Part shown: piece after piece, positions 14,832 through 20,694 of the stretch
Layout: each line of letters begins with the position of its first letter
How positions within the stretch are numbered: position 1 is the first letter of the stretch
Notes under the pieces: generated by a model
The model's input: the letters and a program-made list of their open reading frames with translations, nothing else
Databases searched by the model: none
Told to the model about the DNA's origin: nothing
Program-made: the position numbers and the translations under genes
From: Chloroflexota bacterium
GTDB taxonomy: Bacteria > Chloroflexota > Anaerolineae > UBA1429
Reading direction: 5' to 3'
DNA length: 64,000 nucleotides
Assembly (NCBI GenBank): GCA_019873625.1
Contig: JAIOAW010000014.1
Location: 9,925-73,924, forward strand

Positions 14832-16244
14832 CTACCCTGCCCCAGGCGCAGTGCTCACCGGCACCCCCTGGGGCGCCAGAGGCAGGGTGAACGAAAAGGT
14901 GCTCCCCTTGCCCACGGTAGATTCAAGCCCCACCTTGCCCCCATAGCGCTCGACGATGCCTTTGAAGATAGAGAGGCCCAGCCCCGTGCCGTGCCGGGCG
15001 ATGGCCTTCGCCTCTTCGGTGCGGTAAAAGGCCTCAAAGATGCGCTCCATCTCTTCGGGGTGGATGCCGATGCCCGTGTCGCTCACCGCGCCGTACAAAT
15101 GGTCCCCTTCGCGCCGCAGTTCGACGGTGATGGAGCCGCCTTCCGGCGTATATTTGATGGCGTTGCTGATGAGGTTGATCCAAATCTGCTTCATATGCTC
15201 GGTGCTCAAGGGCGCTTGCGGCAGGCCCTCTTCTACGCGGGTATGCACATTCAGTTTTTTATCCTCAATGCGCGCTTGGAACATATCGAGCACATCGGAG
15301 AGCACCTTCGCGGCATCGGTAAACTCGGGCTTGGCCTGCGCGGAGGGCACATCCTGCAAGTGGGCAAAGTCGAGCAAGTCGCTGATGAGGTCCAGTTGAT
15401 CCCTCGCGCGCTGTTCGGCCTTGCTGACGATCTCCTGCAAGCGCTCTGGGGGGACGTAACCATCCAAAATGAGCCGCAGATAACTCTGGATGGCCGCCAC
15501 CGGCGCGCGCAATTCGTGCGTTACGAGGCGAATGAAATCCGACCGGCTGTTATCTAACTCGCGCAGGCGTTCGTTGAGGCGGGCCAACTCTTCGGAGCGC
15601 AACTCACAAGAGACGTTCGCCTCATACAACTGGCGCTCGCCCTCCCGCAACCGCTCGGAGACGTCTGCCGAGAGGAAACTCACGCCAAAGTTCGCCGTCA
15701 CGAGGACGAAACTCTCGGCCAAGATGTGCCCCACCTCGCGATAGCGCATTGGCAGGCGAAAACCGACGAGGTTGTAATGGGGCAAAAACCCGGTCGCCTC
15801 TGCCACGAGTAGCCCTACCCAAAGGATGGAGGCCACTGCCGCGTAGAGCAGGCTGGCCCGTTTGGTCATCAACACGCTCCCCACGGCCACCAAGAGCACA
15901 TAATAAGTCGAAAAGGGGTTCTCTAGGCCGCCGGAGTAGTGCAAGAGCACCGTCAGGGCGACGAGGTCGGCCAAGATTTGGGCGTGGAGCAGAATCTCGT
16001 GGAGTTGGTAGGGCGCCCCTGGCCCGATGAGCCGGTGGGCCACCACCCAGAAAATCCCGTTGTAAACGGCCATGGCGGCCACAGTCGCCCACAAGGCCTT
16101 GGCCGGGAGGATGTTCCCCAGCCACCAGTTGGCCGCGAGGATCATCGCCGCCGCCAAGGCCAGCACAATCCAACGCAGTGAGACGAGCCACCGCGCCCGC
16201 TCGCTCAATTCGCGGTTGACGGGAATGTGCAAGAGTTCGCTCAC
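14832..16244 (-). CDS. Membrane-bound sensor histidine kinase (HisKA + HATPase_c)
   Basis: About six TM helices; H-box VTHELRAP; N-box [11 protein letters not shown]1 DTGIGI; G2 GTGLGL. Confidence 0.95.
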
Positions 16245-16260
16245 GCTATTCCCCCCGATC

Positions 16261-16743
16261 TTACGGCAGGGCGAACACGCGGTGCAGGGCCGCGACCGCC
16301 CGTTCGCACGCCTCTTCTTGGATGACGCACGAGATGGTCGAGATGGACGTGCTCACCGCCAAGATGTTGATGCCTTCCTCGGCCAAGGCGCCGAACACCC
16401 TCCCCGCGATGCCGGGGCGTTCGCGGAAATCCGGCCCATAGACGGAAACGAGCGCCACCGAAGGCGTAACGGTTACCTTGCGCGCCTTGAGGGCCTGCGC
16501 CACAGGTTCGATGACCTCCAGCGCCCGCTCGCGGTCGGCGTTATCGGTGCAAAAGAGGATGTGCGAATCGTTATTCAAGTCAATGCACTGGACGATGAAT
16601 TGGGCGTTCAGTTCGGCCTGGCCCAACGCGCCAAAGATCGCGGAAGCCAGCCCCGGCCGGTCGGGCGCAGACATCACGCCCACCAAGCACAATGGGCGGA
16701 ACTTCAGAATGCCCCCAACCCGTATTCTGGCATCGCGCGTCAT
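16261..16743 (-). CDS. Stand-alone tandem ACT-domain protein (aspartokinase regulatory-domain-like)
   Basis: DRPGLASAIFGAL and RPGIAGRVFGALAEEGINILAVSTS repeats, as in aspartokinase C-terminal ACT domains. No kinase domain. Confidence 0.88.
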   Translation of the reverse strand: MTRDARIRVGGILKFRPLCLVGVMSAPDRPGLASAIFGALGQAELNAQFIVQCIDLNNDSHILFCTDNADRERALEVIEPVAQALKARKVTVTPSVALVSVYGPDFRERPGIAGRVFGALAEEGINILAVSTSISTISCVIQEEACERAVAALHRVFALP

Positions 16744-16751
16744 CGTTCCCC

Positions 16752-17135
16752 CTATGCCCTGCGATCCAACAGGGCCTCTGTGCGGGCCAACAGGTCTTGT
16801 GGTGAGATGGGTTTGGAGATGAACCCGTTGATATGGATATACTCATCGGTGGGGAAGAGCGCCGCGTAATCCGTATTCGCGATGGAGGTTACCATCAGGA
16901 TGGGGATTTGGCGCTTTTCCGGGTCTTCCGCCATCTGTCGGCTCATATGAAGGCCATCCAGCACCGTCTTCATAATGATATCCAAGATGACGAGGTCGGG
17001 CTTTTCTTGGGCCACCATCCTCAACCCCTCATCGCCATCTGCAGCGCTCACCACCGTATGCCCGGCGGATTCCAGCACGAGGCGCGTCGTCTCGACGAAA
17101 TCGGGGTCATCATCCACGATGAGAATCTTGGCCAT
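16752..17135 (-). CDS. Single-domain response regulator (receiver)
   Basis: ILIVDDDPDF, LVILD (phospho-Asp), T/S and SKP conserved. Confidence 0.93.
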   Translation of the reverse strand: MAKILIVDDDPDFVETTRLVLESAGHTVVSAADGDEGLRMVAQEKPDLVILDIIMKTVLDGLHMSRQMAEDPEKRQIPILMVTSIANTDYAALFPTDEYIHINGFISKPISPQDLLARTEALLDRRA

Positions 17136-17151
17136 AGGGTCTCCTCCTTAC

Positions 17152-19329: not shown

Positions 19330-19375
19330 CCGTTGCCGCGCCCCTTTCGCCCACGATGGGCGGCGTGAAGAACCA

Positions 19376-19780
19376 TCAAGGATTGGGCTTATCGTTCGCT
19401 AGGGTGGGTTCCCCCACCAGCCGGCGGACCTTGGCGAGCAGGTCTTGCGGTTGAACGGGCTTGGAGAGCCACAGGTCTATAGGCAAATATTCATCGGTCG
19501 GGAACATCCCCGCCATAGGGCTATTCGTGATGGAAGAGACCATAATGATGGGGATGTGCCGCGCGCCCTCTTCCTCAAGCGTGCGGGCCACGTGCACCCC
19601 ATCCAGGATGCCGCGCATCATCACATCCAAAAGGATGAGATCGGGCGGGCGCTCTCGCACCTTGCGCAGGGCCACATCGCCGCTGGGGGCCGTCTCCACC
19701 TCATAATGGGCGCTCGTCAGGATGAGCCGCGCAATCTCGCAAAAGTCGGGGTCATCGTCGACCACTAGAATTCGCGTCAT
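19376..19780 (-). CDS. Single-domain response regulator (receiver)
   Basis: ILVVDDDPDF, LILLD and LSKP. Confidence 0.93.
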   Translation of the reverse strand: MTRILVVDDDPDFCEIARLILTSAHYEVETAPSGDVALRKVRERPPDLILLDVMMRGILDGVHVARTLEEEGARHIPIIMVSSITNSPMAGMFPTDEYLPIDLWLSKPVQPQDLLAKVRRLVGEPTLANDKPNP

Positions 19781-19788
19781 CTCGCCTC

Positions 19789-20625
19789 CTAGGCTCGCCG
19801 CCGGCTCAAGAGGCGCCTGACCTCGGCGAGCAACGTCTCAGGCGCCACGGGCTTGGAGATAAAGTTATCAATCAGATGGTCCTCATCGGTGGGGAACATC
19901 GAAAGGTAATCGGAACTCGTGATGGAACTCACCACGAGGATGGGCGTGTGGCGCAGTTGCGGGTTCGCACGGATGCGCCCGCTCGCATCCCACCCGTCCA
20001 GGATGCCATCCATCATAATGTCGAGGATCACGAGGTCGGGCGGCGTGGCGGTCATCGCCCGCAGGGCCTCTTGGCCGTTGGCCGCCGAATGGACGTCATA
20101 CCCCTCGCGTGCCAGCACCATCCGCGCCGCCTCGACGAAATCGGGGTCATCGTCCACCACGAGGATGACGGGCGTGGGATGGAGGGGCACCACCCAATCG
20201 GCCGGCTGTTTGGCCACCCGCAGGATATGCGCCGTGTGGCTGCCCAACACACCGGGGATGCGCCCCACCTTCTCGCTGAGGAAGGCCATCAGGCGCTCGT
20301 TGGATTCGAACACGGCCTCCACCGCCAGGTCATACCCGCCCGTGATGACGTAAACCGCCATCACCTCGGGGAATTGGCTAAGGTGCCGCGCCGTGGCATC
20401 TACGCGGGGGAGTTCCACGTTTAAAAGGATGAGGGCACGCACGGCATAGCCCAGGTGACGCGGGTCCACCACCGCCGAGACCCTCAGGACCCCCTCGCGG
20501 ATCAGGCGCTCCACGCGTTTGCGCACCGTCCCTTCCGAAATGCCCAACTCGCGGGCGATTTCCACATTGGAACGGCGGCCATCTTCGCGCAGCAACTCGA
20601 TAATCTGTCTATCCAGCAGGTCCAT
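19789..20625 (-). CDS. Lrp/AsnC transcriptional regulator fused to a C-terminal receiver domain
   Basis: MDLLDRQIIELLREDGRRSNVEIARELGISEGTVRKRV HTH, a RAM domain (ITGGYDL), then ILVVDDDPDF...LVILD...ISKP. Confidence 0.92.
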   Translation of the reverse strand: MDLLDRQIIELLREDGRRSNVEIARELGISEGTVRKRVERLIREGVLRVSAVVDPRHLGYAVRALILLNVELPRVDATARHLSQFPEVMAVYVITGGYDLAVEAVFESNERLMAFLSEKVGRIPGVLGSHTAHILRVAKQPADWVVPLHPTPVILVVDDDPDFVEAARMVLAREGYDVHSAANGQEALRAMTATPPDLVILDIMMDGILDGWDASGRIRANPQLRHTPILVVSSITSSDYLSMFPTDEDHLIDNFISKPVAPETLLAEVRRLLSRRRA

Positions 20626-20665
20626 CGCACCCCCGTTCGGCCTTCATTGGCCCTTTTCGTGATTC

Positions 20666-20694
20666 ACTATAGCACAAAATACGAATTTCGTCAA
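20666..20694 (-). promoter_or_regulatory. Sigma70 promoter of the Lrp-Rec/NuoEF/HK operon with an overlapping palindrome
   Basis: TTGACG-17 bp-TATAGT with extended TG. The palindrome ACGAA-T-TTCGT (20681-20691) overlaps the -35. Confidence 0.65.

Follow-up and report, generated by a model that had tools for sequence, protein, structure and literature searches.

A receiver-linked NuoEF module in Anaerolineae and its possible place in a two-component relay

Results

An operon that joins NuoE and NuoF to two-component proteins

The window analysed here is a 64,000-nucleotide stretch of contig JAIOAW010000014.1 (GenBank assembly GCA_019873625.1) from a Chloroflexota bacterium of the class Anaerolineae, and our subject is an operon on its minus strand that sets a NuoE/NuoF pair (NuoEF) among response-regulator receivers (REC), an ACT protein, a histidine kinase and an Lrp-type regulator. 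Eight co-directional open reading frames (ORFs) run from 20625 down to 14832 with spacings of −4 to 46 nt, in the 5' to 3' order Lrp-REC, two single-domain receivers (REC2 and REC3), NuoE, NuoF, a further receiver (REC4), a tandem ACT protein and a histidine kinase with six transmembrane segments (6TM; Table 1). The ORF list and Pfam agree on the packing, direction and order described in an earlier prediction made from the letters of the sequence (hereafter the original prediction), which had also placed the operon behind one promoter. A consensus-matching sigma-70-like site does lie 5' of the first gene; because a scan of the region returned 3 sites where 2.5 were expected, the count is not above chance and it is the position alone that is informative.

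NuoE and NuoF present the features of a complex I N-module, with FMN, NADH, N1a and N3 sites, and match their Pfam models over the full length. Across 24–25 aligned orthologues, the NuoF motifs GRGGAGFP, DEGEPGTFKDR, YIRGEF and GAGAYICGEETA and the cysteines C341, C344, C347 and C387 are invariant, as are C73, C78, C115 and C119 of NuoE across 24, which bears out the predicted retention of these motifs; the cofactor assigned to each motif follows the complex I literature. Lacking additional ferredoxin domains, the window NuoF is a short NuoF of the complex-I type. In a search of solved structures it matched complex I NuoF chains best (441–430 bits; 8e9g_F 441, 2fug_1 433), with 420 bits for HydB and 321 and 268 bits for FdsB chains. 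Also among the top matches were 6hl2 and related NuoF-chain entries, which we take to be Aquifex NuoEF subcomplexes that are stable on their own.

The NuoF-receiver link is conserved across Anaerolineae

The receiver-coupled NuoEF module is conserved in Anaerolineae. At least 120 close NuoF relatives were listed at 71–93% identity, those with a named source being Anaerolineae or Chloroflexi metagenome-assembled genomes. Species genomes yielded 14 orthologous loci (L004–L017; 62–76% identity, next best at most 57%), and metagenomes a further 17 (L086–L100, L105 and L113; at least 63% identity). By our reading of the listed rows, 62 other genomes in a sample of 401 from the class carry a NuoF at least 63% identical, as do 9 of 15 genomes of the window's family; a 368/401 tally from the class sample includes two genomes flagged as unpublished (G360 and G403), which no other claim uses. 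Neighbourhoods were mapped using Pfam on 89 flanking ORFs together with blastp maps; ORF calls were crude, blastp labels were checked with Pfam for a subset, and the metagenome loci are in many cases short. Of the 25 loci for which 450 bp or more of downstream DNA is available, all but L097 have a receiver gene after NuoF (24/25). Where the downstream DNA extends to 2.5 kb or more, as it does at 19 loci, a kinase is found in 18 and an ACT gene in 13.

The link between receiver and NuoF also occurs within single polypeptides. Longer relatives of REC4, of which at least 120 were listed, comprise 88 Lrp-REC proteins, 7 NuoF::REC fusions, 4 tandem receivers and 21 distant hybrid kinases or other proteins. 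The NuoF::REC fusions, which fall into at least seven protein clusters (P0032, P0040, P0125, P0126, P0127, P0129 and P0142) and occur in addition at locus L167, can be aligned over their whole length with NuoF followed by REC4, the two parts being joined by a linker of about 12–30 residues. At L167, which belongs to a genome of the window's family (G391), the operon consists of REC, NuoE, NuoF::REC (572 aa), FocA::REC and a 6TM kinase, as confirmed by Pfam. FocA::REC homologues have both domains in 120/120 among the matches listed, and this fusion is widespread. Neither NuoEF with receivers, nor NuoF::REC, nor FocA::REC was found described in the full-text literature, the coverage of which leaves out most subscription journals. 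As the receiver follows NuoF in nearly every locus, the kinase accompanies it in 18/19 and natural fusions exist, the tie between NuoEF and a phosphorelay is, on this comparative evidence, real and old.

The receivers themselves retain the residues expected for phosphorylation. REC4 residues D8, D9, D10, D52, T83 and K108 are invariant among 25 sequences, and the phospho-acceptor pocket can also be read in the other three operon receivers, so that acidic pocket, Asp, Thr/Ser and Lys are all kept. REC2 belongs to the receiver subfamily of REC4, and REC3 is the most divergent of the four, with 35% identity to the FocA::REC receiver against 44–49% for the other three. In the window's genome this subfamily is confined to the operon, where it has four members. 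We considered the REC4 motif TSIANxDYxxLFPTD as a mark of NuoF binding and rejected it, since the sister receivers have the same motif.

Kinase, ACT protein and Lrp-REC

The operon kinase contains HisKA and HATPase_c domains with an H-box His readable in the translation (THELRAP), and Pfam assigns it no PAS or GAF domain. Kinase inputs differ between lineages: some kinases have 6TM regions, some have sCache_3 with HAMP, and others are REC-HisKA hybrids, one of them with Fer4_22, while the input in L006 is an [FeFe]-hydrogenase-like domain. Since these inputs vary while REC4 stays constant, a flow of signal from kinase to REC4 to NuoEF fits better than the reverse.

Two of the variant kinases merit description in their own right. 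The L006 protein (L006:4079-6109, minus strand, 676 aa) combines Fer4, Fe_hyd_lg_C, FeS, HisKA and HATPase_c domains; its gene, next to one for a REC-HisKA-HATPase protein, is convergent with the NuoEF-REC4-ACT cluster, and we regard the protein as a candidate H2-sensing kinase. Downstream of NuoEF-REC4 at L011 lies a 743-aa REC-HisKA-HATPase hybrid that ends in a Fer4_22 dicluster domain (L011:14255-16486, plus strand).

The best solved relative of the ACT protein is the aspartokinase 3l76 (E 2e-36), and Lrp-REC has the HTH and RAM domains of an AsnC-type regulator (PF13404, E 8.9e-16; PF01037, E 5.2e-15). A C-terminal receiver is an unusual extension of an Lrp/AsnC regulator, yet it is common in Chloroflexota, as the share of Lrp-REC proteins among the listed REC4 relatives indicates; orthologues of Lrp-REC were found in L004, L005, L008, L009, L086, L089 and L170. 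The amino-acid input proposed in the original prediction is supported at the level of domains only, with ACT and Lrp RAM domains as its putative receptors.

Catalytic genes beside NuoEF in relatives

The original prediction described NuoEF as an orphan and held that orthologous operons normally including a catalytic subunit would count against it. In the fetched DNA, a catalytic gene (FdhA or NuoG-like/HoxY/HoxH) is present in 12/31 orthologous loci, in several arrangements (Table 1), and is absent from all 13 rows of the window's own NuoF subclade; this objection therefore holds by half, and while the gene-neighbourhood survey upholds the receiver link it restricts the orphan status to the window's locality. 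FdhA has a NuoG-like N-terminus in L013, L015, L093, L096, L097, L099, L113 and L168, and the FdhA genes of relatives are split at an in-frame stop codon, which is what a selenocysteine codon would produce. Because FdhA or NuoG-like/HoxYH genes stand beside NuoE-NuoF-REC in these 12 loci, NuoEF is best read as an enzyme module by descent and not as an invented sensor; on the evidence of its neighbourhoods, it is by descent the diaphorase of a formate dehydrogenase or hydrogenase.

We also built a NuoF phylogeny, one of the checks suggested by the original prediction. This quick IQ-TREE analysis contained 63 rows, namely the window, the HydB of contig C18 of the same genome as outgroup, 29 orthologous loci and 32 of 66 more distant loci (the even-numbered ones); L105 and L113, with matches below 300 aa, were left out. 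The receiver-linked NuoF rows form a separate clade of 30 (SH-aLRT 98) that is sister to complex-I-type NuoF. FdhA-linked rows make up 9/13 in one of its subclades, and the Hox-linked L092 and L010 branch at the base of the other.

Open frames of about 1036–1090 aa with a NuoF FMN domain occur in G002–G006, G008, G011 and G013, and at L010:64-2145 and L016:15281-17221; their fetched parts have an NADH_4Fe-4S, Fer4_20 and Pyr_redox_2 (GltD-like) region adjoining FdhA/NuoG-like genes. In four genomes these NuoF/GltD-like frames share a contig with the NuoEF-REC4 cluster.

Possible partners in the window's genome

We searched the window's genome (G000; 2.76 Mb, 47 contigs, 97.6% complete) for catalytic partners. 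The operon's own contig, C14, has no NuoG, NuoH, NuoD, [FeFe]-hydrogenase, molybdopterin-enzyme or GltD-type match, which extends the earlier observation that none lies in or near the operon. Genome-wide, NuoH (PF00146) gave 0 matches across the contigs, NuoD (PF00346) gave none above the cut-off, with a sub-threshold match on a NiFe large subunit only, and no [FeFe]-hydrogenase was found. Molybdopterin enzymes are confined to C1 and C18, and GltD-type genes lie on C19 and C27. The search for an orphan NuoG, HydA or FdhA returned a single NuoG motif match, inside a NiFe hydrogenase operon on C18, and no FdhA with a NuoG-like N-terminus either in the genome or beside the operon's NuoEF. NuoF-like genes number two, the operon copy and one on C18. 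In the window's lineage, catalytic genes thus lie elsewhere.

The C18 operon is of the HydABCSL type and has the gene order CBS-HATPase, PHP, NuoE-like, HATPase, HydB-like, NuoG-like (562 aa), NiFe small, NiFe large and FdhD. Its HydB-like protein is a NuoF with extra [2Fe-2S] and 2x[4Fe-4S] domains and best matches 7t2r_B (949 bits), and the NuoG-like, or HydA-like, protein best matches 7t2r_A (302 bits); chains A and B of 7t2r are deposited as NiFe hydrogenase subunits, and we take the structure to be bifurcating HydABCSL. The hydrogenase core is orthologous to those that follow NuoEF-REC4 in L092 (HoxH 76%, HoxY 73% and NuoG-like 52% identity) and L010. A NuoG-like protein with NiFe small and large subunits that might take NuoEF is encoded on C18, with its own HydB/HydC alongside. 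The same operon also contains kinase-like CBS-HATPase and small HATPase_c genes and a PHP-domain gene.

Two other candidate partners were rejected. The C1 molybdoenzyme (704 aa), the genome's only full one, adjoins SelA (L084:5836-9867) and has no NuoG-like domain; as a hidden formate dehydrogenase it is unproven, matching TMAO/DMSO reductases at 255 bits against about 150–160 for formate dehydrogenases. C35 encodes the second NiFe hydrogenase, an MvhD-linked enzyme that lacks a NuoG-like subunit. This MvhD-like/NiFe small/large hydrogenase (L166:1859-10309) lies close to an aldehyde:ferredoxin oxidoreductase.

Flanking genes and assembly

Downstream of the operon lie FtsY and then a release factor; upstream, in divergent orientation, are two sulfatases and an OmpR-type regulator whose receiver match is weak. 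The OmpR-type gene was rejected as a member of the system, as it was not seen upstream in L004, and is treated as a neighbour. The longest FtsY ORF (13627-14781, minus strand) begins within the operon's terminator hairpin, its SRP54_N domain starts from residue 98 onward, and a promoter-like site lies inside the ORF at 14616-14588; the true FtsY start is probably further downstream than that of the longest ORF. In DNA runs X2 and X3, contigs join window position 20109, in the receiver part of Lrp-REC, to 17107, at the start of REC4, with 37 other letters between; either reads from paralogous receivers were cross-mapped or a related strain has its genes in a different order. Run X20 (labelled RNA-Seq, probably DNA) and two DNA runs gave only short contigs and no information on transcripts; no RNA data covering the operon were found.

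Table 1. Positions and gene arrangements of features in the window and at related loci
Feature	Position or locus	Strand	Evidence or remark
Sigma-70-like promoter site TTGACG-17-TG-TATAGT (TG-extended)	20666..20694	−	Consensus match; 40 nt 5' of first start codon
Lrp/AsnC-type regulator with C-terminal receiver (HTH + RAM + REC), 278 aa	19789..20625	−	Pfam HTH_AsnC + AsnC_trans_reg + Response_reg
REC2, single-domain receiver, 134 aa	19376..19780	−	Pfam PF00072, E 2e-21
REC3, single-domain receiver, 129 aa	18940..19329	−	Pfam PF00072, E 4.9e-19
NuoE-type [2Fe-2S] thioredoxin-like ferredoxin, 151 aa	18474..18929	−	Pfam 2Fe-2S_thioredx PF01257, E 1e-48
NuoF-type FMN/NADH/[4Fe-4S] flavoprotein, 441 aa	17152..18477	−	Pfam Complex1_51K + SLBB + NADH_4Fe-4S
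REC4, single-domain receiver directly 3' of NuoF, 127 aa	16752..17135	−	Pfam Response_reg
Tandem ACT protein, stand-alone, 160 aa	16261..16743	−	Pfam ACT_9/ACT_7/ACT, two ACT stretches
Membrane histidine kinase, 470 aa	14832..16244	−	Pfam 6TM_PilS + HisKA + HATPase_c
Intrinsic-terminator-like hairpin, 10 pairs (8 G-C), then T-run	14774..14797	−	Just 3' of kinase stop codon
OmpR-type regulator, divergent from operon promoter	20823..21506	+	Trans_reg_C E 1e-20; weak receiver match 33.8 bits
FocA::REC, formate/nitrite transporter + C-terminal receiver, 419 aa	L167:7580-8839	−	Between NuoF::REC and 6TM kinase
C18 NiFe hydrogenase operon, HydABCSL-type	L003:2250-14361		Pfam + solved-structure matches
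NuoE-NuoF-REC4-FdhA	L096, L099
FdhA-NuoE-NuoF-REC4-kinases	L013, L015, L093
FdhA-NuoE-NuoF without receiver	L097, L168
FdhA-NuoE-NuoF, contig ends there	L113
FdhA slightly upstream of REC-NuoE-NuoF-REC4	L094
NuoE-NuoF-REC4-NuoG-like-HoxY-HoxH	L092
Full regulatory cluster, then NuoG-like-HoxY-HoxH	L010
Convergent FocA-FdhA-(NuoF/GltD-like) genes	L014, L016
hyp or fdhD genes nearby	L007, L009, L016

Discussion

We propose that NuoEF is both the NAD(H) diaphorase of a soluble formate dehydrogenase or hydrogenase and the effector of a two-component relay that acts through a dedicated receiver, a reading to which we give an even chance. It builds on what the genomes directly present: the gene set and its conservation, the fusions, intact cofactor and phospho-acceptor sites, and the genomic association with formate and H2 enzymes. 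NuoEF would be a soluble diaphorase of the complex I type that, across the clade, serves FdsGBA-like formate dehydrogenases and HoxEFUYH/HydABCSL-like NiFe hydrogenases, docking on these enzymes through their NuoG-like subunit. REC4 would be its dedicated partner, an association suggested by adjacency in 24/25 loci and by the natural fusions. The operon kinase is predicted to phosphorylate REC4, REC2, REC3 and Lrp-REC; once phosphorylated, REC4 would change how active NuoEF is or how it associates with the catalytic core. Lrp-REC would provide a parallel transcriptional output, and a small-molecule signal, probably an amino acid, would come in through the ACT protein and the RAM domain of Lrp-REC. 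In the window's genome, the sole dock would be the HydA-like subunit of C18, its catalytic genes being unlinked to the operon; because the C18 enzyme has its own HydB/HydC, NuoEF-REC4 would there be an alternative, non-bifurcating NADH module. The operon most likely controls, at the protein level, the coupling of NAD(H) to formate and hydrogen metabolism. A bolder version, possible but on balance doubtful, makes the receiver a true NuoEF subunit whose phosphorylation decides docking on the NuoG-like protein, so that a NiFe hydrogenase or formate dehydrogenase would switch between a bifurcating HydBC input module and a plain NADH module, with the same relay gating the formate channel through FocA::REC. 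In that version a two-component system would control post-translationally how electrons and substrate enter the metabolism of fermentative Chloroflexi, and the ACT protein and Lrp-REC would inform it of amino-acid status.

Several findings weigh against the main proposal. Flanks fetched for the window's NuoF subclade show a catalytic neighbour in 0/13 rows, and a catalytic gene is present at just 3 of the 8 loci for which 4 kb or more is available on each side. No clear formate dehydrogenase is encoded in the window's genome, where the C1 molybdoenzyme is closest to TMAO/DMSO reductases, and no FocA part was found there. Here and in G001 the only NuoG-like gene adjoins its cognate HydB/HydC, which makes NuoEF-REC4 supernumerary in both genomes, and it could equally stand alone. 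Six of the 15 genomes of the same family are without the module, each having a NuoG-like gene and a weaker NuoF-like match, so the hydrogenase is probably independent of the module. Finally, TSIANxDYxxLFPTD is common to the family's other receivers and thus marks no NuoF-specific surface.

The original prediction had offered two roles for NuoEF, an NADH/NAD+ sensor or a phosphorylation-controlled diaphorase, and the evidence favours the latter. As a sensor, NuoEF would in the window's lineage have lost its catalytic partner and would serve to feed a signal into the relay. The NADH/NAD+ ratio would set the redox state of NuoEF, which would alter (de)phosphorylation of bound REC4 and, with the receivers competing for one kinase, shift Lrp-REC phosphorylation and hence transcription. 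This would make sense of a supernumerary NuoEF (two NuoF-like genes against one NuoG-like gene with its own HydB/HydC, here and in G001), of a subclade devoid of catalytic neighbours, of the DNA-binding output and the spare receivers, which could serve as phosphate sinks, and of a receiver subfamily confined to the operon, while the retained cofactor sites are what a redox sensor would need. We nevertheless consider it unlikely. Receivers normally act downstream of a kinase, not upstream; the kinases have varied inputs of their own, including the [FeFe]-hydrogenase-like one; NuoEF-REC4 occupies enzyme positions in FdsGBA-like and Hox-like operons; the receiver family of REC4 is also fused to the FocA channel, a clear effector; and there is no PAS-type domain to read NuoEF, unlike in the H2-sensing HoxBC-HoxJ system. 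A role as stand-alone diaphorase, in which NuoEF would be an NADH:acceptor oxidoreductase (for ferredoxin, flavodoxin or another acceptor) with no NuoG-like partner and REC4 as its on/off subunit, agrees with the high rank of 6hl2 and related entries, presumed subcomplexes, among solved relatives and with the lack of a linked partner gene in the window's subclade. It seems distinctly unlikely to us, since the cluster holds no conserved candidate acceptor gene and sister lineages put the NuoEF-REC unit beside NuoG-like proteins.

The remaining alternatives separate NuoEF from the relay or return it to complex I. If the regulators were merely embedded in the operon, with receivers, ACT protein, kinase and Lrp-REC acting on transcription only and REC4 not on NuoF, the DNA-binding domain of Lrp-REC would be the natural output, and regulatory genes are indeed frequent in hydrogenase operons, as the CBS-HATPase and HATPase genes of C18 illustrate; the NuoF::REC fusions in at least seven protein clusters and at L167, together with a receiver that follows NuoF regardless of other variation, make this very unlikely. 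That NuoEF might be a detached N-module of respiratory complex I is brought to mind by its best structural matches, the complex I NuoF chains, and is scarcely credible: NuoH and NuoD are missing from a nearly complete genome, NuoH was likewise not found in the module carriers G001, G004, G005 and G006, and the receiver-linked clade is separate from complex-I-type NuoF. For this genome we reject it, short of a membrane arm hidden in the 2–3% that is unassembled; NuoG is not encoded with NuoEF.

To our knowledge, nearly all two-component systems described act as transcriptional switches, and the only receiver documented in a Nuo-type enzyme that we know of is a mycobacterial orphan with no known kinase and an unclear role. 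Regulation of NuoEF by REC4, if true, would be a second, independent case of a receiver in a Nuo-type enzyme, in a different phylum. One operon here brings together a kinase, receivers to spare, a receiver that binds DNA and a putative binder of small molecules, and the NuoF::REC and FocA::REC fusions point to targets, which makes the effect of a receiver on a redox enzyme directly testable with soluble proteins. The question bears on the balance between NADH and formate/H2 in the abundant Anaerolineae of digesters and sediments, which is central to syntrophy.

Comparison with known systems

Among characterised enzymes, the NAD+-dependent FdsGBA formate dehydrogenase (6tg9_B, 6vw7_B) shares the order NuoE-like, NuoF-like, NuoG::FdhA with L096, L099, L168, L097 and L013. 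The window differs in that its NuoF is nearer to complex I NuoF than to FdsB (441 against 321 and 268 bits), an extra receiver gene follows NuoF, and the genome lacks an FdhA bearing a NuoG-like N-terminus. The NAD-linked HoxEFUYH/HydABCSL hydrogenases (7t2r A, B; 8oh5_B; 5xf9) are resembled by the NuoE-NuoF-REC4-NuoG-like-HoxY-HoxH cluster of L092 and have an orthologous core on C18; in contrast to HydB, the window NuoF has neither the extra ferredoxin nor the N-terminal [2Fe-2S] domains, is unlinked to a hydrogenase and is paired with a receiver. In the HoxBC-HoxJ-HoxA system, an H2-sensing regulatory hydrogenase (HoxBC) is an enzyme-like sensor that acts upstream of the kinase HoxJ, whose PAS domain it binds, HoxA being the regulator. 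There too an enzyme homologue is tied to a two-component system, which controls H2 metabolism, whereas the constant partner of NuoEF is a receiver and the window kinase has no PAS domain. The 160-aa ACT protein aligns over its full length with the regulatory ACT pair of aspartokinases (3l76, 5yei, 2re1; E 2e-36 to 4e-20) but lacks the kinase catalytic domain and is encoded in a redox/two-component operon.

The original prediction knew of no characterised system with this composition, and the literature searched agrees, apart from a partial precedent in mycobacteria. MSMEG_2064, a single-domain response regulator, is a subunit of Mycobacterium smegmatis complex I, where NuoB is its main contact. 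Its acceptor Asp is buried; the authors suggest that phosphorylation governs whether it joins the complex, and they call a response-regulator subunit unique to mycobacteria (PMC10068793). A second paper makes the same proposal for Rv3143 (PMC9274095). Like REC4, MSMEG_2064 is a CheY-like single-domain receiver encoded with nuo-type genes. It physically belongs to a Nuo-type enzyme, an association that adjacency and natural fusions suggest for REC4; it contacts NuoB, NuoA, NuoC and NuoI, the membrane-proximal part of a complete complex I, and its gene lies 5' of nuoA, with no known kinase. As to orthology with REC4, no 8e9g chain was among the best 60 of the 101 solved matches of REC4. The window receiver instead goes with NuoF, adjacent or fused, in the absence of a membrane arm, and with it in the operon are a kinase, an ACT protein, an Lrp-type output and three further receivers. 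Relative to the mycobacterial precedent, what differs is thus the phylum, NuoF as the partner, the missing membrane arm, a kinase within the operon, and sister effectors such as FocA::REC.

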